Shown one piece after another: positions 1-28,085 of a stretch of 32,000 nt of DNA (its first letter is position 1; every line of letters begins with the position of its first letter). This stretch comes from an uncultured bacterium (GTDB lineage Bacteria > Auribacterota > JACPWU01): assembly GCA_964640155.1 (NCBI GenBank), contig CAZXEQ010000003.1, forward strand, positions 1 to 32,000, read 5' to 3'. The position numbers and the translations under genes are program-made. The notes under the pieces were generated by a model. That model had not been told where the DNA came from and searched no databases. It saw only the letters and a list, made by a program, of their open reading frames with translations.

Positions 1-163
1 AGATGTACCGGTGAGACCAGATGTTCCTTCTGATACTGCAAGAGTGGATGCAGTTACTCCTGATGTTCCTATGGGGGATGTAGTAATTTCTCCAGATGTA
101 CCGGTGAGACCAGATGTTCCTTCTGATACTGCAAGAGTAGATGCGGTTACTCCTGATGTTCCT
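1..163 (+). repeat. In-frame 93-nt (31-aa) tandem repeat at the start of the truncated large ORF; probably continues upstream of the window
   Basis: Bases 1-70 and 94-163 match at 68 of 70 positions by direct comparison (mismatches 46/139 and 52/145). The encoded unit is RPDVPSDTARVDAVTPDVP... and the PDVP motif recurs five times. Confidence 0.85.
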
Positions 164-3281: not shown

Positions 3282-5576
3282 GTGTTTGTGAACTTGGTTG
3301 AATTTGTGGCTCCATTAACAAATAAAATTTCCTTTAATCAATTGATAGGGACTCCATTTCTTAAGGAGAAAACCTTTCAAGACTTCACCTTAAGTTCTAC
3401 CTTTCAGAAAGCTAAAAAACTCCACGCGCAGGGCCTTCAAGAAGACCGGTTTGGTTATAAAAGTCGGAAGGCAGGCATTTTTGGCGAATCTTCAAAAAAA
3501 GATGTAAAAGCCATTTCTGATTTTCTTAAGCTAAAAAAATCTCAAGGAGCTCGTGTTTTAATTCATACGGGCATTGGGGGACAGGCTCTTGGAAATAGGG
3601 CTCAGATTGAGCCAGTTGGAGAAGCAGAAGGTTTTCGTGTGTATGTTTTGGAAAAACTGGGCATTGATTTTAAATCTCTTTTTGAAGAAATTGAAGTTCA
3701 AGGATATCAACCCAGCCAAATTCTGATTCATGCTAGCTCCAAGTCGGGTACGACGGATGAAACGATGATTAATTTCCAAGGTGCCTTGAAGTTTCTCATT
3801 CGCGGCTTAGCTTCAGAATGGAAAATGGATTCTCAGATTGCTAAAAGTCTTATTCAAAAATATGAAGGTGTATCAGATTTGTCAAAATCTTCATTGGTCT
3901 CTCTAAATCTTACCTCCGAAGAGAAAAAGCTTTTGCAATTAGCTTTTGATCGAGTGGTGTTCACCACAACAATCAATATCTCTAAGAGTAGAATTTATGC
4001 TCTTGCTAAAAGTAATTTTGTGAAAGAGTTGTCTCAAGAAGTTCATGGGCAATCAAGAGAGCTCACTACTTTTGCTATTCCTGACAATGTGGGAGGACGT
4101 TTTTCTCGTCGATGTCAGTCAGGTTTAATCAGTGCAGGTTTTTCAGGACGGGATATTTCACAGATTCAATCTGGGTCTGAACAGGTGCTTTCCTTTTTTG
4201 AATCTGATGATCCCCAAGTGAATCCTGCTTTGAAGTTGGCCATTGCTATCTATCTTTTAGAGTATGACTTTATTTCATTTTCTGTTCAAAATTCTAGTTT
4301 GATTGCTGTTGCAGATGCTTTTCGTCAACTTTTTCCTGAGAGTAATGGAAAAGACGGACAAGGACCCTTTGTTGTATCTTCCATAGGTCAAAAAGAACTC
4401 AATGATCGAGCTCAAGCGTCTTTTCAAACAATTTTTTTTATCCTTAATATTGAAAAGGATCAAAAAGGCCAATCTATTGTTCCATTAAGTTTGAAAGATG
4501 CTTCAAAGCCTGTATTTATTTATTCTCAGAACAGTCTTTCAGAAGTCGAGGAAGCTCAAAGAGATCTTTTCTTCGACGATTTTACTGTTTGGTATGGGTT
4601 GCTAAAAGCAGCTGAGATTACAGATCATATAAAGTCGCCTGAATATCAAAAAAGAGATCCTCAAAATCAGCCCTTTGTAGAGCATGGTAAAAAATTAATG
4701 GAAAAAGCGGCTGGTGAATTGAATCGATCTGAAGATGCTTTAAATAAGCGTTATCAAAGTGAATGGCAAAAGGTTGAAAAAGGGCCCACTCTTTCTTCAA
4801 TTGCTTCTTTTGAAAATAAAAAACATGTCAACAATCAGAAATTTAAAAATGATTTACAATCTTTAATTGATCAAGAAATAGAACCTTCTTTAAAAAAACT
4901 TAAGCGCAAGAGTTCTTTACGGGGTGATGAATTATTAAAAATATTAGAAGAAATTGAGTCAAAAAAGAAAAACAGACTTAGTCTGAAAACATTTAATGAG
5001 AAGAGAACTTTAGATGATGAGATTGGCAATCTTTTTGGTCAAATTATTTCGATAGGATTTGAGAAACAAACAGATTCTATTGAGAAAGAAGCAAAACAAT
5101 TGGCTGCTTTGATTTTGTATGCTTTGAAGTATAAAAAAATCATTCTTCCCGTTTTTTATAGTGCTGATGTACAAGCAGAAACTTTGGGAGAGTGGTGGAG
5201 AAGAATGACGGGCAGCTTATTGAGCGATTATGGATTAGGAACCAGAGAGCAACATTCCCATTTTCAAAGCCTTTTAGACGGAAAAGATGTTGTTTGGCCG
5301 CTTCTTGTTGATATGGTGAGCCCTTTATCTGAAATCATTCAAAGGGAAGAGCCTGTTTGTGCTTATGGATTAGCCAAAGATTATCTGGATGGTTTATATC
5401 CTGATGAAGTCAGGAGATTGTATTTGGAAGCAGAAGAGAAAACTTTTTTTGAGATTGCTTGTCGCAGTGTGGCTGTTTTAAAAATGAAAGGCCTTTCTTC
5501 GAAAGAAGCAAAGCTTGAGGCCTATCGTTATTTGGGAAGGGCTTTGGTTCTTGTTCAAGCTTGCACAGAAGTTTGA
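3282..5576 (+). CDS. Glucose-6-phosphate isomerase-like (SIS/PGI superfamily) protein, atypically long with rearranged or duplicated catalytic segment
   Basis: PGI hallmarks read in the translation: IHTGIGGQALG (aa 94-104), SKSGTTDET (153-161), VGGRFS (270-275), ESNGK (353-357), NQPFVEHGK (462-470), GTREQHSHFQ (653-662). The start is uncertain: GTG at 3282, with alternatives GTG 3288 and TTG 3294, and no clear SD. Confidence 0.7.
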   Translation: MFVNLVEFVAPLTNKISFNQLIGTPFLKEKTFQDFTLSSTFQKAKKLHAQGLQEDRFGYKSRKAGIFGESSKKDVKAISDFLKLKKSQGARVLIHTGIGGQALGNRAQIEPVGEAEGFRVYVLEKLGIDFKSLFEEIEVQGYQPSQILIHASSKSGTTDETMINFQGALKFLIRGLASEWKMDSQIAKSLIQKYEGVSDLSKSSLVSLNLTSEEKKLLQLAFDRVVFTTTINISKSRIYALAKSNFVKELSQEVHGQSRELTTFAIPDNVGGRFSRRCQSGLISAGFSGRDISQIQSGSEQVLSFFESDDPQVNPALKLAIAIYLLEYDFISFSVQNSSLIAVADAFRQLFPESNGKDGQGPFVVSSIGQKELNDRAQASFQTIFFILNIEKDQKGQSIVPLSLKDASKPVFIYSQNSLSEVEEAQRDLFFDDFTVWYGLLKAAEITDHIKSPEYQKRDPQNQPFVEHGKKLMEKAAGELNRSEDALNKRYQSEWQKVEKGPTLSSIASFENKKHVNNQKFKNDLQSLIDQEIEPSLKKLKRKSSLRGDELLKILEEIESKKKNRLSLKTFNEKRTLDDEIGNLFGQIISIGFEKQTDSIEKEAKQLAALILYALKYKKIILPVFYSADVQAETLGEWWRRMTGSLLSDYGLGTREQHSHFQSLLDGKDVVWPLLVDMVSPLSEIIQREEPVCAYGLAKDYLDGLYPDEVRRLYLEAEEKTFFEIACRSVAVLKMKGLSSKEAKLEAYRYLGRALVLVQACTEV

Positions 5577-5718: not shown

Positions 5719-6303
5719 ATGAAGATGAAAGCCATGATTTTGGGAGCAGTAGCCATTTTATCTATATGTTGGAGTGCGTCTAGTTTTGCAGCAGATCAGC
5801 TTTTAGTTCATGATTTTGATTTAGGAGAAAAACCTTCAGAAAATGCCTATGATTTTGGTGCTTGGAACAAAGACCCCAATGATACGACTCAAGGATGTAC
5901 AGAAAGCTTTGAGACAGCAGAGAGATTTGGCGATAAAGGTATGAGTCTTCGCCTTGATTTTGATGTAGATTCTCCAGCTCCTGCTTACAATGGAATGTGG
6001 ATGAAGCTTAAAGAATTGGATCTCTCCAAGTATAAATTCTTGAATTTCTATATTAAAGGAGATCCACAAAAGGGTTTTAGTAAAGTGGTCAAGCTCGAGC
6101 TTAAGAACCCCAATGAAGTAGGAAAGAATCTTTACACAGAAGTAACAGGTGAATGGAAATTGGCAAAAATTCCTTTGTCTGAATTTCGTGGATTGAAGGA
6201 TTTAACCAAGGCTACAGAATTTGTTTTGGTTTTCGATGATATGAATACGAAGCCTAAAACTGGAACGATTTATTTAGATAATATTTTCTTCTCGGCTGAA
6301 TAG
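5719..6303 (+). CDS. Secreted stand-alone carbohydrate-binding-like beta-sandwich protein (CBM11-like by motif impression)
   Basis: RBS aaggatgg lies upstream of the ATG. Signal peptide MKMKAMILGAVAILSICWSASSFA/AD. The mature part (LLVHDFD...DFDVDSPAPAYNGMWMKL...GTIYLDNIFFS) is paralogous to modules in the next three genes. Confidence 0.8.
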   Translation: MKMKAMILGAVAILSICWSASSFAADQLLVHDFDLGEKPSENAYDFGAWNKDPNDTTQGCTESFETAERFGDKGMSLRLDFDVDSPAPAYNGMWMKLKELDLSKYKFLNFYIKGDPQKGFSKVVKLELKNPNEVGKNLYTEVTGEWKLAKIPLSEFRGLKDLTKATEFVLVFDDMNTKPKTGTIYLDNIFFSAE

Positions 6304-6324
6304 CAGTTGATGTGATGCAAAAAT

Positions 6325-6368
6325 AACCCCCTTTTATCCTCCTTAGTTTAAGGGGGAAAGAGGGGGTT
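6325..6368 (+). terminator. Extended GC-rich hairpin between the stand-alone CBM gene and the next gene (partial terminator or mRNA-stabilising stem)
   Basis: Outer stem aaccccctttt (6325-6335) pairs with aaagagggggtt (6357-6368). Inner stem cctcctt pairs with aaggggg around the loop agttt. No T-tract follows, so this is not a canonical intrinsic terminator. Confidence 0.35.
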
Positions 6369-6468
6369 CATTATATCTGTACACTTTATTATCAATTCCA
6401 TTTAATATAATTCACAAAGATAATTCTTAGTCAGACTTTTAAAGCCCTGCAAAAGGAGATTTAATGCA

Positions 6469-8484
6469 ATGAGGAAGTTAGCATTTTTATTGTTGTTCTT
6501 TTTTGTTCAGAAGATTTCTTTTTTAGATGAACTTCCTCAACTTCTTGTTCATGATTTTAACTATGGAGAGTTGAACAATCCTTTGGGCGGTGGCTCAGGA
6601 GCCTGGTGTTTGAATCCCGATGATGCTGAGCAGTTCTGCAATGTTTCCTTGGATGTGGACGTTCGGCATGGTGAAAAAGGTTTTTCCCTGAAAGTAGATT
6701 ATGATTTAGATTCTCCTGAACAGGCTCAAGGTGGATTTTGGACTCAGCTTTTAAAGAAAAACTTAAAAGAATACGATCATCTTAACTTTTTTGTAAAGGG
6801 AGATGCCAAAGCAGGATATACCCATCGATTTAGAATTGAGTTTAAGAAGTCAAAAGCTCCTGATAGTTCTGAAAAGCTAGTAGGTGGTTTTACAGTTGAT
6901 GGAGTAGGAGATGATTGGAAAGAGGTTTCCATTCCTTTGAATAAAATGTCCGGTATTATCGATTGGAATGATATTGAGGAAATGGTCATTGTTTTAAAAG
7001 ATCGCTTGGTTGATAAAAAGGTTGGCACTCTTTATTTCGATGATTTTCGTTTAGTTCGTACAGGTGAACCCGGCCCCAGCATTACCGATTCTGTTCCTAA
7101 AAAAATAGCTAAAGAATCAGACAAGGTTGAGGGAGAAGAAAGAGCGCGCGTTTTAGTGGCGCGTTTAAAAGGTTTTCCTGCACAAGTTGTTCTCAATAAA
7201 AAATTTCCAGAAGATGATAAAGCTTTTTTAAAAGAAGTGGCAAAAGATTCATGGGGCTTTTTTAGAGACATTGTAGATAAAGAAACAAACTTGCCTTTGG
7301 ATAATATTGCTTTTCCCAAAGAGGCGACTTTAGACCCTAAAACTTTTATTGGGGATTACACCAATGTTACTAATGTGGGTCTTTATCTGATGTGTTTAGT
7401 TTCTGGTCTTGATTTTGGCTTTATTGATTCAAAAGAAGCAATCCAGAGAATTACAGGAGTTTTGAACACGATAGAAAAACTCGAATCTCATCATGATTTT
7501 CTTTATAACTATTATGATACGACAACGGGTGAACGCACCAGCAATTTTGTAAGCTATGTCGACGAGGGATGGCTTACAGTTGGACTTATTGTTGTGAAAA
7601 ATGCGTTTCCAAAAGAGTTAGGGGATCGTTGCCAAAAGTTGATTTCAAAAAGAGATTTTTCGTTTTTTTATGACTCTGTAGAAGGGCAAATGTTTCATGG
7701 TTTTTATACCAATGTGGATGTCTATGCAGAGTATCATTATGGGGCTTTTTATACGGAACCTCGTGCCATCAGTTATATGAGTATTGGTAGAGATCAAGCA
7801 CCTATTGAACATTGGTTCAAAATGGCAAGAACCTTGCCCAAGGAGTACACATGGCAAGCACAGGAACCTCAAAATCGTGTCAAAAAAGAGGTTTTGGGAC
7901 ATAAATTTTATGGAGGGTATTATATTTTTAAGGGGACGCCTATTGTTCCAAGTTGGGGAGGAAGTCTTTTTGAAGCTCTTATGCCCACCATGATTATTGA
8001 TGAAAAAGGGTTAGCTCCCAAAGGATTGGGTTTAAATGATGAAAGATATGTGAAAGGGCATATTTCTTATACAAAAGAAGATTTAGGTTATCCTGTTTGG
8101 GGAATGTCTCCTTGTTCTGTTCCTCCAGGTGATGGATATGCAGAGTATGGAGTTCCGGGATTAGGTTTAAAATCATATGGGCAAGGTGTGGTAACTCCTC
8201 ATGTCACTTTTCTTTCGCTTGAGTTTGCCCCTGAGGAATCCATTAAAAATTTGCGTAAAATGATAGAGCTTTATCCTATCTACGGAGAATATGGCTTTTA
8301 TGATGCTGTGGCTGTCAAAACAGGAATTGTTTCAACAAAATACCTTTGTTTAGATCAAGCCATGAGCTTTATTGCGTTAAACAATTATTTAAATGACGGT
8401 GCTATTCGTAAAAGATTTATGTCTGATCCCATTGCTCAGAAGGTGACGGGACTTTTAAAAGAAGAAAAACTTTTTGAGGAGTAA
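6469..8484 (+). CDS. Secreted CBM-like module + DUF3131-type (alpha/alpha)6 glucanase-like protein
   Basis: RBS aaggag lies 10 nt upstream. Hydrophobic N-terminus. Aa ~22-198 carry the shared module (LLVHDFNYGE...DYDLDSPEQAQGGFWTQL...GTLYFDDFRL). The C-terminal ~450 aa carry DYTNVTNVGLYL, SWGGSLFEALMP, YGFYDA and LDQAMSFIALNNYL. These resemble DUF3131 and the glucanase-like region of cyclic beta-1,2-glucan synthases. Confidence 0.8.
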   Translation: MRKLAFLLLFFFVQKISFLDELPQLLVHDFNYGELNNPLGGGSGAWCLNPDDAEQFCNVSLDVDVRHGEKGFSLKVDYDLDSPEQAQGGFWTQLLKKNLKEYDHLNFFVKGDAKAGYTHRFRIEFKKSKAPDSSEKLVGGFTVDGVGDDWKEVSIPLNKMSGIIDWNDIEEMVIVLKDRLVDKKVGTLYFDDFRLVRTGEPGPSITDSVPKKIAKESDKVEGEERARVLVARLKGFPAQVVLNKKFPEDDKAFLKEVAKDSWGFFRDIVDKETNLPLDNIAFPKEATLDPKTFIGDYTNVTNVGLYLMCLVSGLDFGFIDSKEAIQRITGVLNTIEKLESHHDFLYNYYDTTTGERTSNFVSYVDEGWLTVGLIVVKNAFPKELGDRCQKLISKRDFSFFYDSVEGQMFHGFYTNVDVYAEYHYGAFYTEPRAISYMSIGRDQAPIEHWFKMARTLPKEYTWQAQEPQNRVKKEVLGHKFYGGYYIFKGTPIVPSWGGSLFEALMPTMIIDEKGLAPKGLGLNDERYVKGHISYTKEDLGYPVWGMSPCSVPPGDGYAEYGVPGLGLKSYGQGVVTPHVTFLSLEFAPEESIKNLRKMIELYPIYGEYGFYDAVAVKTGIVSTKYLCLDQAMSFIALNNYLNDGAIRKRFMSDPIAQKVTGLLKEEKLFEE

Positions 8485-8487
8485 TCT

Positions 8488-11346
8488 ATGCGTTTTTTAA
8501 GACATTTCACGTGGGCATTGTTTTTACTCATTTCTATGCAAGGAATACTTTTTTCTGGAACAGCTTCTGATTCTAAAGTTCTTGTTGTGAATACTTTTGA
8601 TATGGGGCTTAATTTTAATAATTTAGGAGGACGTCAAGGAGGGGATCAAGAAGCTCCAGGGCTTTTGTTTCCTGGCATTCATTATATCTCTTCAGAAATG
8701 GGAGGAGGGCCTACAGGAGAATACCTAAAACTTGTCTATGACGTTCGAGCTGCCGGTAGTTTTTCTTTTTATTGGATGAAGGTGGGTCAACCTCTTGGAA
8801 CAGGTTTGGGAGAAAGCCTTCCTTTAAATCTATCTTCTTATGATTATCTTGGATTTTGGGTGAGAGGAGAGCAGGGACAAGAACGTTTTAAAATAGAAAT
8901 ACATCAAGATACGGACGACGATGGGCAATATACATCAGGGAAAGATATTTCAAGCTCGGTTTATATTGATCATTATTTAAAAAGTGGAATTCAGAAAAAG
9001 TGGGGCAAAGCCTATGTTCCTCTTAAAGAATTTCAAGTCATTACAGACTGGTCAAAAATTTTAGAAATTGTAATTACATTTGAAAATTCTGCCAACCTTC
9101 AAAAAGTAAGTTCTGTAGATTTAGATGATATTGTTTTTGGAAGGATTTCGGATGTTTCCGCTGAGGTAAAGGAAAATTTAAATTTAAAAAGAGAGTCTCT
9201 TTTTTTAGGAGAATCAAAAATAGAAGACGGAACTGTTTTAGATCGCTCCAAAACTTTTTCTCTTGTCTTAGGGGATGAGTTGAGAAATATAGAATCTGTT
9301 TGGTTGATGACCTCATCGGATGGACTTTTGTGGAAAGTGGTTGGGAAATCTTTTGTAAATGGAGAAAAAATAATCAATATTCCCTGGCAGAGCACATTTT
9401 TTAATGCCGAAGAAAGGTTTATGTTGGATGTATGGGTCTTTAACCCTTTGGGTGAAAAGAAGACTCTAGAAAAGCCTTTTCAAGGTCTTAAATTGCAGGC
9501 TTTAAATGATGACTCTTTTCTTGATGAAATAGAGAGACGAGCTTTTCAGTATTTTTGGCAAGAATGGAGTCCCAGAACAGGATTGTTTTCAGATGCAACA
9601 ACCAATGACTGTGCCAGTATTGCAGCCACTGGATTTGGATTGTCTGCTTATTGTGCTGCAGTTGAAAGAGGTTGGGTTGGCAAGGAAGAAGTACAAAAGC
9701 GTGTTTTAAAAACAATCGACACATTTTTAAATAAAGCTCAGAAGCGTTCAGGTTTTTTTTATCATTTCTTGAAAATGGAAGATGCAAGCCGATTTGGGAA
9801 TAGTGAGGTTTCAGTGGTTGATACAGCTATTCTTTTATGGGGGATGTTAACAGCTTCGGAGTATCTGGGTGGAGAAATTAAAACAAAAGTAGATCAGATT
9901 TATTCTGAAATTATTTGGAGTGATTTTTTAGTTCAAGAGAAAGATGACCTTCATTTTAATCAGTTTAGAATGGGGTGGAATCCAGAAGGAGGAGCTGAAG
10001 GAACATTTTTAGATGCATATTGGGATTATTATTCAGATGAAGCTATACTCATTACTTTACTTGCTGTTGCTTCTCCAACACATCCTGTTTCTGCAGATGT
10101 TTTTTATGCTTGGAAACGTGAAACTGCAAATTATGCGTCCGGTCGCCCTTTTATTCAATCTTGGCATGGGTCTCTTTTTGCTTATCAATACGCACATGCT
10201 TGGCTTGATTTTAAGGGTTTAAAAGATAAAAAGGGAATTAACTGGTGGTTGAACACAGTAGATGCCACAGTTGCAAACCGACAGTTTTGTATTGATGAAA
10301 TGGAAAAATTCAAAGGTTATGGCCCGCAAAGTTGGGGTGTTACCTCCATGGCTTATCCGAATGTATTAGAAGTTGAGGGGGTGGCTCATATAACAGAAGA
10401 TTATACGATGAGTTATGGAACTTTTCCTTGCGGTACAAATTTTGCTCTTCACGATGGTACGATTGCTGCGTCAGGTCCTGCCGGATCTTTCCCATTTTTG
10501 CCAGAAGTCATTTTACCCACTTTAAAGAAAATGGTTTCTCAGGTGCCTCAAAGTTGGGGAGAATTTGGTTTTAGATCTTCTTACAATCTTGATATGAATT
10601 GGTTTTCTACCAATTATTATGGGATTGATTTGGGTCCCACATTGATGGCAATAGAAAATTATCGTACGGGGTTTTTCTGGAATTTGATGAAGAAAAACGT
10701 TTATGTAAAAGAAGTTCTACAAAAGTGTGAATTTCAAGAGGATTCAACGATTTATGAATCTCCTAAGATTGAAGATAAGCCTACACCTAAAGAATTAAGC
10801 GTAGATCATTCTACCCATAACATTCAGAATCTCATTGTGGAAGATTTTGATGATATGGAGCATGTCAAAAAAGCCCTCGGCGTGAATTTTTCTTCTTGGA
10901 GTAAAGATCCTACAGACGAAACACAAAAAGCCTCTGCCCAGATTGATACGACTGAAAATTCTCATTCGAACGGTGCTTCCTTAAAAATTGATTATGATGT
11001 GGATTCACCACGACCTGCATTTAATGGATTTTGGTTAAAACTTAATAATATTAAAGTTTCTGCTTATTCTACTTTTGAGTTTTTAATTAAGGGTTCCCAG
11101 AAAGGTTTCCCTAATAGATTTAAAATAGAGCTTAAAGGGGACGGGAAAGTGGGTACAACCTATGTGAGCGGTATAGGCTCAGAGTGGAAAAGAATAAGTA
11201 TTCCTCTCTATGAATTTCATGGTTTATCAAATTGTAAAAAGTTTACAGAATTTACAATTGTTTTTGAAGATCATACCGTAGGACAGAAGGTAGGGACTGT
11301 TTATATTGATGATATTCAGTTTTCAGCTGGGGGAGTTCAAAAGTAA
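8488..11346 (+). CDS. Secreted CBM-like / PF10091 (putative glucoamylase, GH144-like) / CBM-like three-part protein
   Basis: Starts 3 nt after the previous stop, with RBS gaggag. Signal-like N-terminus. The central region has CASIAATGFGL, GFFYHFL, SVVDTAILL, SWHGSLFAYQY and GIDLGPTLMAIENYRTG. The C-terminal 174 aa (nt 10822-11343) are a second copy of the shared module (DYDVDSPRPAFNGFWLKL...GTVYIDDIQFS). Confidence 0.8.
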   Translation: MRFLRHFTWALFLLISMQGILFSGTASDSKVLVVNTFDMGLNFNNLGGRQGGDQEAPGLLFPGIHYISSEMGGGPTGEYLKLVYDVRAAGSFSFYWMKVGQPLGTGLGESLPLNLSSYDYLGFWVRGEQGQERFKIEIHQDTDDDGQYTSGKDISSSVYIDHYLKSGIQKKWGKAYVPLKEFQVITDWSKILEIVITFENSANLQKVSSVDLDDIVFGRISDVSAEVKENLNLKRESLFLGESKIEDGTVLDRSKTFSLVLGDELRNIESVWLMTSSDGLLWKVVGKSFVNGEKIINIPWQSTFFNAEERFMLDVWVFNPLGEKKTLEKPFQGLKLQALNDDSFLDEIERRAFQYFWQEWSPRTGLFSDATTNDCASIAATGFGLSAYCAAVERGWVGKEEVQKRVLKTIDTFLNKAQKRSGFFYHFLKMEDASRFGNSEVSVVDTAILLWGMLTASEYLGGEIKTKVDQIYSEIIWSDFLVQEKDDLHFNQFRMGWNPEGGAEGTFLDAYWDYYSDEAILITLLAVASPTHPVSADVFYAWKRETANYASGRPFIQSWHGSLFAYQYAHAWLDFKGLKDKKGINWWLNTVDATVANRQFCIDEMEKFKGYGPQSWGVTSMAYPNVLEVEGVAHITEDYTMSYGTFPCGTNFALHDGTIAASGPAGSFPFLPEVILPTLKKMVSQVPQSWGEFGFRSSYNLDMNWFSTNYYGIDLGPTLMAIENYRTGFFWNLMKKNVYVKEVLQKCEFQEDSTIYESPKIEDKPTPKELSVDHSTHNIQNLIVEDFDDMEHVKKALGVNFSSWSKDPTDETQKASAQIDTTENSHSNGASLKIDYDVDSPRPAFNGFWLKLNNIKVSAYSTFEFLIKGSQKGFPNRFKIELKGDGKVGTTYVSGIGSEWKRISIPLYEFHGLSNCKKFTEFTIVFEDHTVGQKVGTVYIDDIQFSAGGVQK

Positions 11347-11362
11347 ATTTTATTCAAAAATG

Positions 11363-13324
11363 TTATTTCCCTTTTTCTTCTGATTCAGGGTCAATCGTTT
11401 GAAACCCTGCCTTTGTCAAGGCTGTTTGAACGTTCTTATTTTGCATCATCATTTTCCAAACAAGTCCCGTTCGATAATTTTCAATCATGAGCAACATCAC
11501 CCCTTGATCAATTCCAATATGATCATGAGAAAACCAATTCATTTCTGGGTTAAAAGCACTTACAGGTCCATAGGTGCCCCAAATTTTTTCTCCATAAGTG
11601 AGCATCAAATTTTTAAAACTCTTAATGACAAGTTTGGGTGTGAAAGGTAAAGATGAAATGAGGGCATAAGGGGCTAATGTTCCATCATGTTGATTTTCCA
11701 TCGCTCCATAGGCGCGATAGCCTTTAGGGCCATCTGAAGCAGAAAGACCCCAACCCAAAGGACCATATCCTTTAAAATCAGACGCATGACGTATGCAGAA
11801 CTCTCGATTGGCAAGAATACACTTTTTAGAATTTTCCCAGTAATTTGTATGCGTGTCGTGTTTATTTCTAAAATCGATAAATGCTTGAGAGTAAAGCTGT
11901 GTAAACAGTGAGCGTTGAGGATCACTGATAAACTCAAAAGAACCTTCAACATATTTTTCTCTACGCCATTCATTCCAGGCGCTTGAGGCAACGGGATGAG
12001 TTGGAGAGCCTATGGCTAAAAGGTATAAAATCATTTGTTCTGCAGCCATATTCCAGACCAGTGATTTATCAAACCCTTGTTCTGGCTTCCAGGACATGTA
12101 CAAAAGCCCTTTTTCATTCGCACTCATCCAGTTCCACTCTACATTTTCATAAAGTTGATAAGCAAGGTGGCTGATATCAGAGTTTGGAAAATATTGGGCA
12201 ACAAAAAGAACTCCCGCCATCAGAAGTGCTGTATCAATGGATGAAACTTCACTATCCGCCCAGCGTTTTCCAGTTCTGGCATCTAAAAAGTGATAGAAAT
12301 AGCCATGTTCCTGATCTGCCTTTTGAAGTGTTTTTAATATGTCAGATACTTTTTTTTGCACTTCTACACGACTTAACCAACCACGTTTTTCTGCTATACA
12401 ATAGGCGATTAGGCCAAAGCCTGTTGCTGCAATGCTAGAGGGGCTACCTGGGGTGTTGCGATCTTTAATTAAACCCGTTTGGGAAGAGTATTGCTCAATA
12501 AAGTACTGAAAGATTTTATTTTGAAGGAAATCCAGAAGCAAATCGTTATTTCCTTCTAATAAATGAAGTAATTGATTATACGTTTCAACTTTAGCTTTGC
12601 GTTGTATTTGGTCATATTGTTTTTGAGATCCAATGAGTGCGAAATGGTCAAAATAGAGAGAGCCCACCTTAGCGTCAGCGATCTGGCTTTCAAAAACAAT
12701 GGTTAATTCCTCAACAGGAGAGATATTATTAGAATTAGAAAAATTTTTTAAAGGGATTGAAATTTCTTGCCAGCTGTCTCTAACCCCGATGACATAATAA
12801 ACTCTATTTCCGTGAGCTGTTTTTAACTCAATCTTAAAACGACGTGTAAAACCTGTTGTTGCGTCACCTCGAACACGAAAGTAAAGAAATTCAAAGGGTT
12901 TTAAGTCAATACCATTGAGTCTTGTCCAATAGCCATTATATGCAACCTGTTTGGATTCTACATCATAGGTGAGCCTTAATACTTTATTTTTATCTTTTTC
13001 TGAATGAGAATCATAAACAATTGCTTCAACACATGTTTCTTGGGGATCTAAAGGATCTTTCTCCCAAGCTCCAGAATTCCCACCTAAGTGATTCAAAATT
13101 GAGTTTTCGTCAAAGTTATCAATAAGAAAGATTAATTTATCATCCTTAACATTTGTAGTAGGAGAAAGAGAAGTAGCTGCTTGAGGTAGCCTTGGAATTG
13201 AAGGCTTCTTGATAGGGGCTTGACTTGAATCAACCTGAACTTCCAAATCTGCTCTTATTTGTACGCTAATAGGATTCAATAAGTAACAGACTAAAAATAT
13301 AACTGAAGCATAAATAGTTTTCAT
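11363..13324 (-). CDS. Secreted CBM-like module + PF10091/GH144-like glucanase-like protein
   Basis: Signal-like N-terminus MKTIYASVIFLVCYLL. Aa ~62-232 carry the shared module (TYDVESKQVAYNGYWTRL...GSLYFDHFAL). The catalytic-like part has PSSIAATGFGL, GYFYHFLDARTG, SSIDTALLMAG and GIDQGVMLLMIENYRTG. RBS aaggag upstream. Confidence 0.8.
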   Translation of the reverse strand: MKTIYASVIFLVCYLLNPISVQIRADLEVQVDSSQAPIKKPSIPRLPQAATSLSPTTNVKDDKLIFLIDNFDENSILNHLGGNSGAWEKDPLDPQETCVEAIVYDSHSEKDKNKVLRLTYDVESKQVAYNGYWTRLNGIDLKPFEFLYFRVRGDATTGFTRRFKIELKTAHGNRVYYVIGVRDSWQEISIPLKNFSNSNNISPVEELTIVFESQIADAKVGSLYFDHFALIGSQKQYDQIQRKAKVETYNQLLHLLEGNNDLLLDFLQNKIFQYFIEQYSSQTGLIKDRNTPGSPSSIAATGFGLIAYCIAEKRGWLSRVEVQKKVSDILKTLQKADQEHGYFYHFLDARTGKRWADSEVSSIDTALLMAGVLFVAQYFPNSDISHLAYQLYENVEWNWMSANEKGLLYMSWKPEQGFDKSLVWNMAAEQMILYLLAIGSPTHPVASSAWNEWRREKYVEGSFEFISDPQRSLFTQLYSQAFIDFRNKHDTHTNYWENSKKCILANREFCIRHASDFKGYGPLGWGLSASDGPKGYRAYGAMENQHDGTLAPYALISSLPFTPKLVIKSFKNLMLTYGEKIWGTYGPVSAFNPEMNWFSHDHIGIDQGVMLLMIENYRTGLVWKMMMQNKNVQTALTKAGFQTIDPESEEKGK

Positions 13325-13365
13325 GGGTGAAAAGCTCCTTTCTTAGGAAGCTTCCTCGTTCACCC
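13325..13365 (-). promoter_or_regulatory. 5'-UTR hairpin that pairs the SD and abuts the start codon of the 11363..13324 gene
   Basis: Minus-strand RNA reads gggtgaa-cgaggaagcttcctaagaaaggagctt-ttcaccc-AUG. The outer 7-bp stem is gggtgaa/ttcaccc. In the inner stem, aagcttcc pairs with ggagctt, which contains the SD. Confidence 0.3.
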
Positions 13366-13772
13366 AGTATCTTATTGCTAAAAATAATCATAAAAGTGCA
13401 TTTATGAACATTTTAATAAAAAATGGTTACTTGTTTAGGAAGGAATCATTTCTTATTTTGCCTACTTACCGAAGTCCCATGGATTTGCATCTGTGGAATA
13501 CCTCTGTAGCGGGATCATAAATTTTATTCTAGATCATCTTAAAGAGCAGCAAGATATAGAATATATTGTGCACAAAATTAAGATATTTGTCAATATTCTT
13601 TTAAAGTTAAAGGGTTAAAGGTAAAATAAAACAAATCTTTAAAAATACTTAAATAAAAAGTTTTATATCTCTATATTTCGTACATTTTTTAAATTATTTA
13701 TTTTTTGAACAAGTTTGTTGTTTTTTTTTATTTTTATTTTAAATAAATATATTTCTTTAAAAGGAGATAAAA

Positions 13773-15728
13773 ATGAAAAAAGTAGTTATTTTTTTTGTTT
13801 TAGGATTTTTTTGTAGTTTTTCAGGTATTTTTTCCTCTCAGGCTTCAGTTTTATCTCAAGAAGATCAAGTTTATCTAAAAAAAATCATGCAAGAAACTTG
13901 GGCATGTATTTCTGATCTTGTAGATGAGAAAAGTGGTATCCCTTTTGATAGTAGTGCAAAGCCAAATTACACCTCTATGAGTAATATTGGATTTTATCTG
14001 GCAAGTATTTTTGGAGCACAAGAAGCAGGATTGATTAATCAGAAGGAAGCAGAGGTTCAAATTAAAAAAGTTTTAGATTTTTTAGATCGTCTTGAAAAAT
14101 GGCGTGGTTTTCCCCCAAGTTGGTTGCAAGTTTATCAACCTATCAGTTTAGAAAAGATTATTTCTCCTGTGGATTCTGCAAATTTAGTAGCAGGCCTTCT
14201 CGTTATTCGACAAGGTTATCCTATTTTTAAGGATCAAATTACAAAACTAATCAATGCCATGGATTGGAAGGCTTTCTATGACAATAAGGCTAATTCTCTA
14301 AAAGGTGGATATAATCTTAGGAAAAAGAGAGAGCTCTCATTTCAATATAAAGATTTAGGAACTGAGCTTAGAATGGCATTTTTTCTGACAATTGCGACAA
14401 AAGCAGCTCCTTTAAAATTATGGACTGAATTGGACAAAATTCTTGAAGAACGTTATGACATTCAATATTTAGGGCCTGGCTGGAAAAATGGGGGACTTTT
14501 CCTTCAAGGAATGACAGGGTTATTTTTGGATGAAAGAGGAACCATGATGGGTAAATCTTTTGTGAATATGGCCTATGCTCAAATTTTACATGCAAAGCAA
14601 AAAAAATATCCTTTTTGGGGTTGGTCCGCTTGTTCTACTCCAGATGGAGGTTATTTAGGTGCTGGGAAGGTTATGGATCAAGTCGTAACTCCACATGCGT
14701 CAGTCTTGGCTATTTCCTATTACCCTCAACAAGTTGTTAAAAATCTCAAACAATTAGATCTCTATAAAATACGTAAGCCTTTTTATTCCAATCATGGACC
14801 TAAAAATTATGGATTTCGTGATGCCATTGATTTGAAATCAAAAAAAGTGACGGAACGTTATTTAATGATTGATCAGACCATGATTTTTTTGAGTTTAGTC
14901 AATTTTTTACACGAAGGAGTGATTTATAAGACATTTTCAAGAGATCCTATTGTGAAACAAGGTTTGGATCTTATTTCCGACTATAAAAACTCTTTTTTGC
15001 GTGAAGTCGAAGAAATTTGTCAAAAGAGAGACAAAGGATTAGAAGAAAAAATTCCTTTGGAGTTAGATTTATCAAATCCTATCATTAAACCTTTTGTAGA
15101 GTCTGTATATGTTGAAACAGTTGCAAAGCATGTAAAGCAGAAAGTAATGATCGATGGACATTTGTCCGAATGGTCTGAGGCAAAAGCAGAGACTTTTCCA
15201 TTAAGTAGAACTTTAGAATCAGGACTTGTTCAAAACACTCAAGATTTAGATGCAAAAGCCTATTTCTTATGGGATGAAAAATATCTTTTTTTTGCCATTG
15301 AGGTTATGGATGATGAAATAATAAATGATGAAGAGGCGAAGAATCTTTTTAAAGGAGATTGTATTGAGCTTTTTATTGATCCAGATAATGATGTTTTAAA
15401 ATGGGGAAGTCTACAAGATTTTCAAATAGGTTTTTCGGCTCCTACAAAAAATCAAACTGCTAAGATTTGGGCATGGTTTCAATCACGAGCTCCTAAGTCA
15501 AACGAAATTCAATTTGGTGTAAGTTCGTTTGATGAAGCACGGAGAAAGGGTTATCGTGTTGAAGCTGCTATTGCTTGGAAGTTCTTGAAAGTTGAACCTA
15601 AGGCAGGCCGGATTTTAGGCATTTCTCCAGCGGTGCATGATATAGATTTAGATCAATCAGCCGAGACAAAACTAAATTGGTGCTATTTATCTGAAGGGAA
15701 GTTAGGTGGATTGAAACTAGAACAGTAA
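13773..15728 (+). CDS. Secreted DUF3131-type glucanase-like protein with C-terminal CBM9-like domain
   Basis: RBS aaggag lies 7 nt upstream. Signal peptide MKKVVIFFVLGFFCSFSGIFSSQA. Motifs YTSMSNIGFYLAS, GWSACSTPDGGY, YGFRDAIDL and LMIDQTMIFLSLVNFL are paralogous to 6469..8484. The C-terminal ~190 aa (IDGHLSEWSEA...YFLWDEKYLFFAIEVMDDE...GDCIELFIDPDND...GYRVEAAIAW) resemble CBM9. Confidence 0.8.
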   Translation: MKKVVIFFVLGFFCSFSGIFSSQASVLSQEDQVYLKKIMQETWACISDLVDEKSGIPFDSSAKPNYTSMSNIGFYLASIFGAQEAGLINQKEAEVQIKKVLDFLDRLEKWRGFPPSWLQVYQPISLEKIISPVDSANLVAGLLVIRQGYPIFKDQITKLINAMDWKAFYDNKANSLKGGYNLRKKRELSFQYKDLGTELRMAFFLTIATKAAPLKLWTELDKILEERYDIQYLGPGWKNGGLFLQGMTGLFLDERGTMMGKSFVNMAYAQILHAKQKKYPFWGWSACSTPDGGYLGAGKVMDQVVTPHASVLAISYYPQQVVKNLKQLDLYKIRKPFYSNHGPKNYGFRDAIDLKSKKVTERYLMIDQTMIFLSLVNFLHEGVIYKTFSRDPIVKQGLDLISDYKNSFLREVEEICQKRDKGLEEKIPLELDLSNPIIKPFVESVYVETVAKHVKQKVMIDGHLSEWSEAKAETFPLSRTLESGLVQNTQDLDAKAYFLWDEKYLFFAIEVMDDEIINDEEAKNLFKGDCIELFIDPDNDVLKWGSLQDFQIGFSAPTKNQTAKIWAWFQSRAPKSNEIQFGVSSFDEARRKGYRVEAAIAWKFLKVEPKAGRILGISPAVHDIDLDQSAETKLNWCYLSEGKLGGLKLEQ

Positions 15729-16147: not shown

Positions 16148-19100
16148 TTAGATGTCTCCCGTCAAGCGGATGAAGAACTTATGAGCATTGTCTTCTGCGC
16201 CTGTTCTAAGATCATCTGAGAAGTCTGTGAAGTTATATCCTGCTCCTAAACGAATATGATCGATCACTTGTCGATCCACTTCGACCAAAAATCCTGATTT
16301 GCGATCGCCTGTTTCAGTTTCTTTTAAGATTCGATATTCCCCGGCAAGATCCCATTTCTTCGTGATGTGGAAGTTGATACGGTTAATCCAAAGATGATTC
16401 TTAACTTCGATAAAATCACTGTCTAGGACGCTGACTTCACCAAATTTAAACGCATATTTTTCTACCAACTGGAACCAACGATTAATGTCGTAAGCTCCTT
16501 CAATAGAGGCAAGATGTGATCTTTCCAAAATATTCAGACCAAAATCAGACTGAGCTTCAGGATCATCATCACTTAAATAAGAATATTTACCAATAAAATT
16601 AAGTCTGTCTGCATAGACGGGACGGTAGGCAAAGCCGGTACCAGCTTCATAGAAGCAAGCTGCATCAATATCTGATGAGCGATTTTCTGTGAGTCCATAA
16701 TTAACTCTACCTAACCATTGTAAGTCTTCTGTTAGTTGCCACTTGATTAAGTTTTGAGTCAAATATTGACGCAAGGTGACATCCGAAAAGCCTTCGTCTT
16801 GGCGGAATTCAAACTTTGTGGAGGCGTTTAACCAATTCCATTTGGAGTAGGAGAGTGTACCTGAAACAGCGTCTCTACTTAAATCATCATCACTATCAAT
16901 ACGTTCATATGTAGATCCAAAAGACCATCCTTTTTGGAGACGTGTTTCATAACCAAAGAGGCTAGATTCTAACTGGCCTTTTCTGTAGTTTGTATACTGT
17001 TTTTCGGTGGTGAAATTGCTTCTTTCATCAATGTCAGTTCGTGTTCCAAATGTGGTTCGAGAAGCTCTTCCTAATGAATGATCCGTGCCCATCATTTGAT
17101 TGATATACATACGTGTTTTCTCACTGGTTTGCGCTTGAACACCTACCAAAGTTGAATTCCCACGTGTTCCAACCGTTTCTTGTCCTTGTAGCCAAATCTT
17201 TTCTGTGACTTTGACATCTGCTCCAACAGAGGTTTGATGATTATCTGGACCGGCAACAGTCACTTGTTGAGCAATAAAGGGGATAAATCTTCCACTCCAA
17301 TGATAACGAGCTTTTGCAGCAAGCGTGTCAGAAGACTCGTTAGTGAATTGGAAAAAGCCCGAAAGAGGATCATCAAAGGTTAAAGGATCTTCAATTTCAC
17401 GATGTTGATATTCGCCAGTCAATTCCCATTTTCCAATGTCATGGGTTAATTGGGCTGAAGTAGTGTGACTTCTGCTTCCATCAACCAATGAAGAGGAAAG
17501 GGGATTGGGTCCACCAATGGTAGTAGGGGAATAAAGACCCACAGAACGTATAGGATCATTTAATAATTTTTGAGTGTCATGACGAACATTTAAGAAAGTA
17601 GTGGCAGCTAGCTTCAGACTTGCTTCCACACCCATTTTTTGTGTGCCTTCTTCGAGGAGAGAAGAGGTGTTGGAAAATCCTGGAGCAATATATGTGTAAT
17701 AAGCTTTGGTTTTTAGGCGATCAGAAAAAGCTGTTTGTGCTTTTAAGCTGTAGGCCTGTTCATAATCCAGATTTGTGTTGAGATAATCTTGAGGGCTAAT
17801 GGCTTTATATTCATCCAAAGTTACATTGATGCTTCGGGTGTTCCCCTGAATGGTTCTAAAATAGGTGGGATCCGAAGCGTTAAAAGAAATACCCCCATCT
17901 TGTGAATAGCGTGTTCCAGATTGATCCCCTCGAGATTGAGCATATTCTGCAATGAATTTTGTCCATTTGCCAAGTTTCATCAAGATATCTCCACCGAGCA
18001 TCTTGTAATCAGGTCCTTGCCGATCTTCTTGAACAAATGTTCCACCGACACGCACATTGTCTAGGACTTGCTGATAGCCTCGAACAGCACGTGTAGGATT
18101 CTCAAATGGGGAAGAGGATAAATGCTCATAATCCACAACAAGAGAAGATGTATTTCCAGGTAAAATATTAGACGAAACAATACTATTAGAACCTGTTACA
18201 GAGGAGAGGGGTTTAGTAAGAATAATTCTTCCACTTCTGTAGTCCATTTCATAGTCAAGTCCTTCCGTCAAATCGATACGTGATGAAACACGCCCTGTTA
18301 CTCGGTCCCGTGTAACGACTTGCACTTTTTCACTTCCTTCTACGACTTGGTTGTATTTTAGATAATAAAGAGAACCACCAGTTCCTAAGAATTCGTCATG
18401 ACCTGCATTAGTTCCATCTTCAGCATAAAAACCTGTAATTCCTCCATAAGGATCACCGTAGGTATTGGTTTTTTCTCTTTGGGCATGAAGTTTTGCTCCG
18501 GATAAAGTTCTATTGTAAGTTGCAAGATCAAGATCAGTTAATCCGGTTTCAAAGCTACCCCATTGAAAATAGGATTTATCCATTTCAAGGAGCAAGAAAA
18601 GATTATTTCGTGTGTCCGTGGCTCTATAATCAATCACCGAACCATCCCCATAAACAGGATAATAACGATCAGGATCCAAATTAGTAAAAAATTTGGTGTT
18701 ATTCGAGCGGGATGTATCCAAAGAAGACGTGATTAAATAACGTCCCTTCACTTTTGCCTTCAAATAATAGGCAATACGCCCATTTTCATAAAAACCATCA
18801 TCAAATTCATCTTCATCTGAAACAGATTCAAGATGAGACGTAACATCTTTTCCGCCTAATTCACCTTCTGCCATACCCACCATGAAGAAATAATTATCTT
18901 GAACATCTAGCTCTCGAACATAAGTAATCGTTTTTCCCTTGGCATCAGTGTTGCTAATTTTTACAACCTGAACTCCTGGGGGAAGAAGGACTTCTTTTTC
19001 AAAAGTTCCATCTTCATGAACATAGGTGTCTTGGCCATTAATTTTAATCGTAGTCCCTGCTTCTGCATGACCTCGAACCATCACGCTGTTTTTATTTGTT

Positions 19101-26867: not shown

Positions 26868-28085
26868 TTATAAAGAAATTGTTTCTCCTTCATTTTCAAG
26901 ACTGAGCATAAGCAAAATATAATCTCTTAAATGTCGTGTGATGAGAAAATTTTGACGAACATGTTCTTTTCCGTTTTTACCAAGTTTTTCTGCAAAACTA
27001 GGATTTTGTAAAATTTGTTTGGTGTAATAAGCTGTTCCTTCAATGGTATGGGAAAGTAAGCCCGTATATCCATGTGATATTTGTAAGGTAATACCTCCTA
27101 CAGCGGAAGCCACAACAGGCTTTGATTTCCATAGAGCTTCTGCAACAGTCAGTCCAAAGCCTTCTCTTAAAGATTTCTGAAGAACCACTTGAGAAGCCCG
27201 TTGTAATGCATTAATTTCAATGTCGGAAGAGGGAGGTAGAAATAAAACATGAATATCGGGATCATTTTTTGCTTCTTCTTCAACCATTTCTAAGATTTTT
27301 GCTCCTTCAGGATCATCTGTAGCTCCTCCTCCCGCAAGAATCAATTGGCAATCAATGGCTTTTTTCACCAATCGATAAACTTTGATGACTCCGAGAGGAT
27401 CTTTTTGATAATCGAAGCGTGAGATTTGACTCATAATAGGTTTATTAGTTTCGATTTTTAATTTTTTGAGTACATCACTGATAATTTCAGGAGATAAATC
27501 TTTATTTTTATCACTGAGAGGATCGATAGAAGGACTGATGAGTACTTGCCGTATAGGAAGGGGTTTTGAAAAGGAGGGTGCAGAGAAAATAACAGCATCA
27601 TAATGTTTAATGTATCCTTCCAAATAAGTCCAAAGGAGGGGATCTGAAGAAGCAGAATCAATATGGCATCGCCATACCCATTTTTTGCCAATGCGAGATT
27701 TTTTTTCAATAAGTCCAATGGGTTGGGGATCATGAATAAAAAAATGGTCACTTGAAAGATCCATCTCAAGTAAATTTTGGCGGTTTACTTCTTCAAAATG
27801 ATCGAGTTCGTCTCGACTTAACTCATCTTTTCTTCCATGAAGCATGTTGTGAATTTTCTTTGTAACGGAAAAGAATTTTTCGCCTCCTTTAATTACATCC
27901 CATTTAGCATTAATGCCCACTTCGCCGAAGAGGGGAATCATGCGATTTAATATTTCAGCAACTCCACCTCCGACAGCTGTAGAATTAACATGTTGCATGT
28001 TGCGACCTTTTAAGCGACTGGCCAAAAAGCGGATTTCATCCACAGTGGATTTTCCAATAAAAGGAATATATTGATCTAGAATCAT
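26868..28085 (-). CDS. treT: GT4 glycosyltransferase, trehalose glycosyltransferring synthase (TreT)-like
   Basis: HVNSTAVGGGVAEIL, WVWRCHID, SPSIDPLSDKN, SRFDYQKDP, ATDDPEG, SLREGFGLTVAEALWKSKPVVASAVGGI and NFLITRHLRDY match my recollection of archaeal/bacterial TreT proteins along the whole length. Confidence 0.7.
   Translation of the reverse strand: MILDQYIPFIGKSTVDEIRFLASRLKGRNMQHVNSTAVGGGVAEILNRMIPLFGEVGINAKWDVIKGGEKFFSVTKKIHNMLHGRKDELSRDELDHFEEVNRQNLLEMDLSSDHFFIHDPQPIGLIEKKSRIGKKWVWRCHIDSASSDPLLWTYLEGYIKHYDAVIFSAPSFSKPLPIRQVLISPSIDPLSDKNKDLSPEIISDVLKKLKIETNKPIMSQISRFDYQKDPLGVIKVYRLVKKAIDCQLILAGGGATDDPEGAKILEMVEEEAKNDPDIHVLFLPPSSDIEINALQRASQVVLQKSLREGFGLTVAEALWKSKPVVASAVGGITLQISHGYTGLLSHTIEGTAYYTKQILQNPSFAEKLGKNGKEHVRQNFLITRHLRDYILLMLSLENEGETISL

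Follow-up and report, generated by a model that had tools for sequence, protein, structure and literature searches.

A stretch of 32,000 nucleotides from an uncultured bacterium of the Auribacterota lineage (contig CAZXEQ010000003.1 of assembly GCA_964640155.1, positions 1 to 32,000), hereafter called the window, carries a cluster of five genes in which one protein module of about 170 residues occurs five times. One copy makes up a free-standing protein of 194 amino acids (aa), and the other four sit on three of the four neighbouring enzymes, which belong to the β-1,2-glucanase (SGL) clan. The module is a divergent subfamily within the β-sandwich superfamily that unites the carbohydrate-binding module (CBM) families CBM11 and CBM30 with CIA30, its copies in the window are old paralogs, and it probably serves an exported glucan-enzyme system as a CBM.

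Five module copies and their age

The copies are labelled here by their hosts. M1 (nt 5791-6300) is the free-standing 194-aa protein (5719-6303, plus strand), where it follows a predicted signal peptide at residues 1-24, MKMKAMILGAVAILSICWSASSFA. M2 (nt 6532-7062) lies at the N-terminus of the 671-aa enzyme (6469-8484, plus strand), M3 (nt 8572-9147) and M4 (nt 10822-11343) at the N- and C-terminus of the 952-aa enzyme (8488-11346, plus strand), and M5 (nt 12629-13141) at the N-terminus of the 653-aa enzyme (11363-13324, minus strand). When the five segments were compared with one another by BLASTP, with the database size set to 1e8, all ten pairs were significant at 24-44% identity. The closest pair is M1 and M4 (E=4e-43, 44% identity), as an earlier note on this DNA, made from the letters alone, had claimed for the free-standing copy. 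M1, M2, M4 and M5 otherwise match one another at E values of 1e-24 to 4e-33 (33-38% identity), and the divergent M3 matches the other copies at E=2e-8 to 1e-5 (24-29% identity). The similarity is thus far beyond chance and is not of low complexity.

A hidden Markov model (HMM) made from the five copies was run against the six-frame translation of the whole window and found just five domains, at 203-261 bits (M1 261, M2 250, M3 203, M4 253), with envelopes that agree with the module coordinates given above within a few codons. No sixth copy rose above noise in the six frames, a neighbouring 1835-aa protein included. The fivefold repetition and the positions of the five open reading frames (ORFs), both taken from the earlier note, are therefore borne out.

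A near-invariant set of residues characterises the family: W49, D52, D55, Q58, D82-V-D-S85, N91, G92, W94, K125, E127, K129, W146, K180 and D187. The tryptophans W49, W94 and W146 are invariant or nearly so across 53 free-standing members. M3 matches the family consensus at 20 of 36 positions, compared with 29-35 in the other four copies, and has lost W49, D52, D55, Q58, D84, S85, N91 and G92.

The relationships of the copies were assessed by comparing distances among 140 module domains extracted from fetched genome loci, and by a neighbour-joining tree of 86 module sequences with 100 bootstraps. In the tree M1, M2, M3 and M5 each cluster with the positional ortholog in two related loci, L083 and L001 (bootstrap for the ortholog as sister: 100 for M1, 82+17 for M2, 99 for M3 and 99 for M5), and none of them clusters with another copy from the window. 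The M3 lineage also includes the N-terminal modules of Omnitrophota enzymes of the 952 type, therefore this fusion must be old. M4 clusters with its L083 counterpart (61%) and adjoins the clade of free-standing modules. The 773-aa ortholog in L001 lacks M4, which is present in L083, and of the 140 domains M4 alone lies C-terminal on an SGL enzyme; this module was therefore gained later, a case of genuine shuffling. M4 is not a recent copy of M1, which is 50-60% identical to free-standing orthologs elsewhere as against 44% to M4.

At the DNA level, similarity between the copies is confined to 54 nt at 70-74% identity. The ortholog grouping, this scant DNA similarity and the presence of the M3-type fusion in Omnitrophota together identify the copies as old paralogs; recent tandem duplication is ruled out by the tree and by the near absence of identity between the DNA sequences. 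The proposal of local duplication and shuffling in the earlier note must thus be divided. Alignment and tree uphold the similarity of the copies, and shuffling stands for M4 and for the family generally, while the recent local origin has to be given up.

Fold of the module and extent of its family

With a 57-sequence family alignment as input, AlphaFold2 modelled the 194-aa protein at a mean predicted local distance difference test (pLDDT) score of 91.7 and a predicted template modelling (pTM) score of 0.83. The model is all-β, an 11-strand β-sandwich with a disordered signal peptide. Its best fold match in the PDB by Foldseek is CtCBM11 (1v0a/6r31; E=1e-8, template modelling (TM) score 0.71 target-normalised), at 18% identity and a root-mean-square deviation (rmsd) of 3.0-3.4 Å, followed by NDUFAF1/CIA30, a mannanase CBM, MAM, and modules of the CBM4/27/28/29 type. 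M5, taken within the model of the full-length 653-aa enzyme, likewise matches CBM11 1v0a best (TM 0.70 target-normalised). By sequence, the five-copy profile finds CBM30 of Clostridium thermocellum CelJ in the PDB (2c24/1wmx; E=2.6e-5 over about 100 residues) and CIA30 chains at E=0.13, and the deeper profile of 57 sequences reaches CBM11 1v0a at E=4e-3. Pfam, profile matches, AlphaFold2 and Foldseek therefore agree on a β-sandwich of the CBM11/CIA30/galactose-binding-like kind, which had been suspected from the letters.

Among the 57 family members, 43 match Pfam CBM_11 at E<0.01 (best 2e-12), 16 match CIA30 and 7 match CBM30; the model of the xyloglucan-binding domain SGBP_B gives weak matches in two members. 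In the window, Pfam CBM30 (PF21582, cut-off 27 bits) matches the 952-aa protein with 35.6 bits, summed over two partial stretches in M3 and M4, and gives no match for the copies outside this protein. M2, M3 and M4 gave no Pfam CBM_11 match at E<0.1. The ligand residues on the concave face of CtCBM11 we take to be Tyr22, Tyr53, Tyr129, Asp99, His102, Arg126 and Asp128, with Tyr53 stacking on the ligand. In a profile alignment to 1v0a, which is weak (18 bits), Tyr53 falls on Y90, a conserved tyrosine in the motif AYNG(F/M)W, and Asp128 falls on D161.

For the 194-aa protein 123 homologs were detected, nearly all of 190-260 aa, in bins labelled Chlamydiota, Candidatus Omnitrophota and similar; the best genome match, at 95% identity, comes from a Candidatus Auribacterota bin. 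The protein belongs to a large family of exported proteins of about 190-260 aa in Candidatus Auribacterota and Omnitrophota. Its description as an exported, non-catalytic, single-module protein holds well, for the protein is kept as such in more than 100 sequence clusters. Homologs are already labelled 'carbohydrate binding domain-containing' or 'CIA30 family' in databases, so that the fold and the kind of protein are known.

An exhaustive profile search of 1.84 billion representatives returned 2,523 proteins (clusters at 50% identity) at E<1e-3, of which 419 at E<1e-30. The top 150 representatives comprise 85 free-standing proteins, 8 tandem doublets, 22 proteins of 300-460 aa with one copy plus extra sequence and 26 large multidomain proteins devoid of an SGL domain, in addition to the SGL-fused proteins considered below. 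The F5/8 type C domain is also among those combined with the module in large relatives. The family as a whole is thus a mobile, general-purpose binding-type domain. One relative of 911 aa (P0188), a Ser/Thr protein kinase with TPR repeats, has a single module copy at residues ~569-737, and the module may also serve there as an extracytoplasmic sensor domain. A recurrent architecture of about 830 aa in Elusimicrobiota and Omnitrophota (P0273-P0294) consists of an N-terminal module, a GH144-like domain and a C-terminal CBM9, and thus unites in one protein the accessory modules that are split over different enzymes in the window.

Host enzymes, gene linkage and the proposed role of the module

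Apart from the free-standing protein, the cluster encodes four enzymes. To judge by eye, each of the five proteins starts like a typical Sec signal, with a basic n-region and then a hydrophobic stretch, and an NCBIfam search assigned none of the five to a family. Pfam PF10091, named 'putative glucoamylase', is found in all four enzymes and corresponds to the SGL clan. The 671-aa enzyme consists of M2, a charged linker of ~50 aa and an SGL-clan (α/α)6 domain (PF10091 E=4e-22), whose best PDB matches by sequence are the cyclization domain of TiCGS (8wy1, 6.5e-38) and the middle domain of the cyclic β-1,2-glucan synthase Cgs (1.7e-37). The 651-aa enzyme (13773-15728, plus strand) is also closest to 8wy1 (E=4.9e-30); its SGL-clan domain occupies ~nt 13836-15002 (PF10091 60.6 bits, with DUF3131 also matched), and the module is absent from it by HMM. 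At its C-terminus the 651-aa enzyme carries a CBM9 (~nt 15150-15680, residues 460-636; PF06452, CBM9_1, 70.1 bits against a cut-off of 23.4) that matches TmCBM9-2 (1i82) at E=1.9e-7, which confirms the CBM9-like end foreseen for this fourth enzyme.

The 952-aa enzyme comprises M3, a β-rich spacer of ~100 aa, a GH144-like domain (~nt 9475-10797; PF10091 E=4.7e-60), a linker and M4, and is closest to XcSGL in the PDB (8xul, phmmer E=4.9e-60), an enzyme classed as GH144 (PMC12102758). In the 653-aa enzyme M5 is followed by a GH144-like domain (~nt 11393-12550; PF10091 E=3.5e-69), with phmmer E values of 1e-62 to 8xul and 7e-61 to CpSGL 5gzh. By sequence, the 952-aa and 653-aa enzymes are GH144-like and presumably endo-β-1,2-glucanases, and the 671-aa and 651-aa enzymes, being nearest to GH189, could act as β-1,2-glucanotransferases or as hydrolases. 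All four conserve the general-acid Glu (CpSGL E211) and an acidic candidate base; the latter stands at the position of CpSGL E142, which is Asp in other SGL families. E429 and D364 of the 653-aa enzyme fall on CpSGL E211 and E142, respectively, equivalent D and E residues occur in the 952-aa enzyme, and the Asp and Glu columns are conserved in the 671-aa and 651-aa enzymes in a four-sequence alignment. The reading of the host genes as glucanase-like is thereby made specific: all belong to the SGL clan, two of them GH144-like and two nearest GH189.

When the whole 653-aa enzyme was modelled with AlphaFold2 (pLDDT 88.9, pTM 0.77), its barrel superposed on GH144 crystal structures with Foldseek TM scores of 0.82-0.89 (target-normalised), an rmsd of ~2 Å and 30-34% identity. 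In this model the last β-strand of the module continues directly into a 24-residue helix (residues 234-257) that enters the barrel. Because this continuous helix joins the two, the model argues for a fixed and not a flexibly tethered arrangement of the module.

The genomic setting links the module to such enzymes beyond the window. Gene order is kept in L001 and L083, where a phosphoglucose isomerase (PGI)-like gene, the free-standing module, the 671-type, the 952-type and the convergent 653-type enzyme follow one another; M1 is 85% identical to its ortholog in L083 and 60% to that in L001. In the window the PGI-like gene (3282-5576, plus strand) encodes a predicted cytoplasmic protein of 764 aa and lies upstream of the 194-aa gene, on the same strand and with a gap of 142 bp. 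L001 and L083 have it directly upstream of the free-standing gene, and L007, L024 and L026 contain it too. The PGI match of the 764-aa protein (PF00342, 24 bits) is weak and covers the N-terminal third alone. The phylum labels of the syntenic relatives are inconsistent: L001 (GCA_016178055.1) is labelled 'Chlamydiae bacterium' at NCBI and L007 (JAYRIK01) 'Candidatus Auribacterota'. In L083 the 653-type ortholog (8168-10711, minus strand) is called as 847 aa, with the module beginning ~60 residues later, and the call overlaps the end of the adjoining 951-aa gene; either the protein is extended at its N-terminus there or the start was called wrongly.

We surveyed 76 genome loci with a free-standing homolog for neighbours within 10 kb. 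An SGL-clan ORF was found in 42 of them, GH94 in 27, a solute-binding protein in 29, a ROK regulator in 26 and a GH35/42-like protein in 12. On the assumption that genomes hold few SGL-clan genes, which is probable, 42 of 76 would amount to a strong enrichment. Free-standing genes that share a locus with an SGL gene are on the same strand as the nearest one in 53 of 54 cases and within 500 bp of it in 23 of 54, and in those loci all five 952-type and 23 of 33 671-type SGL genes carry the module. Multi-copy clusters recur: L014, L033 and L047 hold 5-7 module copies. In these three loci, from bins labelled Clostridia, the copies are spread over 4-5 adjacent genes, including two-copy proteins and SGL fusions; such a window-like architecture in bins of this label suggests mis-binning or lateral transfer. 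In the Omnitrophota locus L003 a free-standing module, a GH35/42-like protein, a module-SGL enzyme, ROK, a solute-binding protein, GH94 and a second free-standing module lie together, a layout of the catabolic uptake operon type.

The reading that we favour, and consider rather probable, is that the module is a CBM of the CBM11/CBM30 type, in a divergent subfamily, that serves the exported enzymes encoded around it. For β-1,2-glucan itself as the ligand, a plausible case exists only in lineages co-evolving with SGL enzymes, and we would rate it as possible, though less likely than not. We infer carbohydrate binding, cellular location and co-transcription, and the cluster would then form an exported system acting on β-1,2-glucan. 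The GH144-like enzymes would cleave the polymer and the GH189-like enzymes would cleave or transglycosylate it, while the N-terminal modules of three enzymes may hold the glucan chain near the (α/α)6 barrel. In the 653-aa enzyme the module could, by way of the continuous helix of the model, be a fixed extension of the substrate-binding surface, and M4, on its linker rich in Pro, Glu, Lys and Ser, could be a second binder, tethered like a classical CBM. The 194-aa protein would be a soluble or surface-associated glucan-capturing protein outside the cytoplasm, working with the putatively co-transcribed enzymes, and the linked cytoplasmic PGI-like gene would fit a route into glycolysis. Bins of Candidatus Auribacterota have been described as fermenters poor in glycoside hydrolases (GHs), with 3-9 each (PMC9324843), so the cluster would be a major part of the GH repertoire. 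A bolder version appears doubtful to us: that the subfamily is the first β-1,2-glucan-specific CBM family and that its free-standing form captures periplasmic cyclic or linear β-1,2-glucans of neighbouring cells, alongside GH144/GH189-like enzymes. If true, it would mean dedicated feeding on the envelope glucans of other Gram-negatives by GH-poor, small-genome and possibly host-dependent lineages.

Several observations weigh against the assignment to glucan binding or to β-1,2-glucan in particular. The window copies stay below the Pfam CBM_11 cut-off of 27 bits (M1 22.3, M5 18.1) and the CIA30 scores (16.1 and 16.3 bits) below that of 24, so that the searches against CBM11 (PF03425) and CIA30 that the earlier note proposed give matches under threshold. 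As 43 of the 57 relatives do match, the subfamily sits on the edge of the CBM_11 model. In the same weak 18-bit alignment that pairs Tyr53 with Y90, CtCBM11 Arg126 and Tyr129 both fall on Leu, and neither Asp99 nor His102 is conserved; in M3 most of the signature residues are gone. SGL fusions account for only 9 of the top 150 representatives, and close relatives (E<1e-50) occur on GH2_C/GH72-like TIM barrels and with β-helix/NosD, PKD, cohesin/dockerin and Ser/Thr kinase domains, therefore the family overall is not specific to β-1,2-glucan enzymes. About 28 of the 76 loci, some of them short contigs, have no SGL-clan, GH94, solute-binding-protein or ROK gene nearby. Finally, the GH94 protein of the Omnitrophota loci is about equally near to cellobiose phosphorylase (1e-157) and to the GH94 domain of Cgs (1e-153), and for this reason the GH94 neighbour does not fix the substrate.

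It is unlikely, in our estimate, that the module binds a glucan other than β-1,2, be it β-1,4, mixed-linkage β-1,3-1,4 or a co-occurring polymer, and thus directs enzymes and free-standing protein alike to a composite material, for instance wall matter or cell debris, and not to the enzymes' own substrate. Such targeting would suit the nearest characterised relatives by fold and sequence, CBM11 and CBM30, which bind β-1,4 and β-1,3-1,4 glucans, as well as the many non-SGL catalytic domains to which relatives of the module are attached and the slightly closer match of the Omnitrophota GH94 to cellobiose phosphorylase. It would also suit the CBM9 found on the fourth enzyme and on many GH144-like homologs, since a characterised CBM9 member binds the reducing ends of β-1,4 glycans. 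However, most of the CtCBM11 ligand residues are replaced in the module, and across phyla the lineages of M2, M3 and M5 have each co-evolved with SGL enzymes of a particular type. Moreover, the characterised SGL-clan enzymes all act only on β-1,2-glucan (PMC12102758). CBMs usually match the substrate of their enzyme.

Another explanation, which we hold to be quite unlikely, is that the enzymes have the N-terminal copies as integral parts of their structure and not as binders, with the free-standing protein as a detached subunit that docks onto an enzyme or onto a partner at the cell surface. The copies might then shape or cap the substrate cleft, decide between endo and exo action, determine product length, or mediate oligomerisation. 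The helix at residues 234-257, with no flexible linker, would fit this in the model, as would its pTM of 0.77 in spite of ~56 disordered N-terminal residues. M3 has lost signature polar and aromatic residues and is kept with 952-type enzymes across phyla all the same, and the structurally related CIA30/NDUFAF1 is a protein-assembly factor. M4, however, stands at the opposite end of its protein on a linker that looks flexible by eye, and the mobility of the family over unrelated architectures, together with its mostly free-standing occurrence, is what autonomous binding modules typically show. In the GH144 enzyme BDI_3064 (5z06) the N-terminal domain does not superpose (rmsd 14.6 Å). As a candidate for the module itself it was rejected as well, since there was no sequence match and full-length superposition was no better than that of the barrel alone.

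Very unlikely is the remodelling of the cell's own periplasmic, osmoregulated-periplasmic-glucan-like β-1,2-glucan by GH189-like transglycosylases or cyclases with the free-standing module as a periplasmic glucan holder. In its favour, the cyclization domain (GH189) of cyclic β-1,2-glucan synthase is what two of the enzymes resemble most, the five proteins with export signals have no evident anchoring or secretion domains, and Candidatus Auribacterota bins have been characterised as fermenters with few GHs (PMC9324843). Against it, the window yielded no glucan synthase (GT84/Cgs or OpgH-type), the Omnitrophota loci with solute-binding protein, ROK and GH94 have a catabolic uptake layout, and a cytoplasmic PGI-like gene is linked to the cluster.

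Surrounding genes and comparison with known systems

The divergent 653-aa (minus strand) and 651-aa (plus strand) genes are separated by an AT-rich gap of 448 bp (13325-13772), which is probably a shared regulatory region; the 1-kb bin 13001-14000 has a GC content of 0.29, against ~0.37 elsewhere in the window. Scans for promoters and terminators did no better than shuffled sequence, with 32 promoter-like sites (shuffle mean 32.4) and 7 terminator-like ones (shuffle mean 7.7). Given these scans and the PGI-like gene that precedes it on the same strand, the 194-aa gene is at most a putative first cistron, the position that the earlier note had suggested for it. Two pairs of inverted DNA repeats (9783-9833/12222-12272 and 10651-10697/11439-11485, 71-79% complementary) are not regulatory hairpins: they reflect SEVS..DTA and IENYRTG, catalytic motifs conserved between the two GH144-like paralogs, whose genes are convergent.

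Just upstream of the cluster lies an ORF of 1039 aa (11-3130, plus strand, GTG start) with no Pfam match below E=0.01 and no PDB sequence match. A synthase or phosphorylase was considered for it and dropped, as no Pfam or PDB match supports either, and the gene was not seen at the corresponding position of L001. Adjoining the glucanase cluster, a predicted exported protein of 1835 aa (16148-21655, minus strand) combines SdrD_B, DUF11, Glucodextran_B and FlgD_ig domains and, by eye, two jelly-roll repeats of the CBM4/22 kind at the N-terminus and a long C-terminal part resembling a β-barrel. Further on, at 26868-28750 on the minus strand, a TreT-like GT4 glycosyltransferase (PF21269 and Glycos_transf_1) is followed by a DUF5752 protein; this conserved-looking pair is possibly involved in compatible-solute (trehalose-type) synthesis.

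β-1,2-Glucans are symbiosis and virulence factors, and the enzymology of these polymers is expanding quickly (GH144, GH162, GH189, GH192-194). In the literature searched we found no described CBM dedicated to β-1,2-glucan, nor an account of the signature of this subfamily, of the fact that in Auribacterota and Omnitrophota it occurs predominantly as a free-standing exported protein, or of its linkage to SGL genes. The family is large, consists of a single, easily expressed domain of ~170 residues and is repeatedly tied to SGL genes, which makes it a concrete candidate. A confirmed β-1,2-glucan CBM would serve as a reagent for detecting β-1,2-glucans, cyclic as well as linear, and for affinity work with them, and it would help to annotate the main exported glycan-degrading system of two poorly known phyla, Auribacterota and Omnitrophota. 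Should the ligand be an ordinary β-glucan, the cluster would be a well-documented case of modular CBM reuse. The cluster is a tidy, fairly ordinary modular enzyme architecture, with a new subfamily within a known CBM fold.

With CBM11 (the module of C. thermocellum Lic26A-Cel5E; 1v0a, 6r31; PF03425) the module shares the β-jelly-roll fold and the size, along with a sequence likeness that is weak but real and an aromatic residue aligned with the ligand-stacking Tyr53. It differs in being only ~18% identical and in having its own signature (GAW..DP.D..Q, DYDVDSP..NG.W and K.E.K), in sitting on SGL-clan rather than GH5/GH26 enzymes, in being mostly free-standing, and in its occurrence in bins of Auribacterota, Omnitrophota and Elusimicrobiota. 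CBM30 (CelJ; 2c24, 1wmx) is the closest solved structure by sequence to the five-copy profile, and many multi-copy relatives exceed the PF21582 cut-off, as does the 952-aa protein when its two partial stretches are summed; however, the alignment is restricted to the C-terminal ~100 residues, and 7 of 57 members of the free-standing type match. CIA30/NDUFAF1 (PF08547; 7zkp) is a related β-sandwich (Foldseek E=3e-6, TM 0.56 query-normalised), and several homologs of the module are named 'CIA30 family protein' at NCBI. In contrast to this mitochondrial complex I assembly factor, the module proteins are bacterial, predicted to be exported and found in putative glycan-enzyme operons.

Among the enzymes, GH144 (CpSGL 5gzh/5gzk; XcSGL 8xul) shares the (α/α)6 barrel and the acid/base positions with those of the window, and the GH189 cyclization domain (TiCGS 8wy1) is the nearest structure for the 671-aa and 651-aa enzymes. 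In BDI_3064 the arrangement of the N-terminal domain differs from that in the 653-aa enzyme. Unlike the window enzymes, the characterised members of GH144, GH189 and GH192-194 come without a CBM11-like module; the only domains listed on characterised SGL enzymes are Ig-like, β-propeller and an unnamed 'putative carbohydrate-binding' one (PMC12102758). The surface glycan-binding proteins of Bacteroidota may offer an analogy for the free-standing form, in that a non-catalytic, exported binder is encoded beside the enzymes that it presumably assists. In comparison to them, the 194-aa protein is a single domain of ~170 aa, with no evident lipobox and no SusC/D partners.

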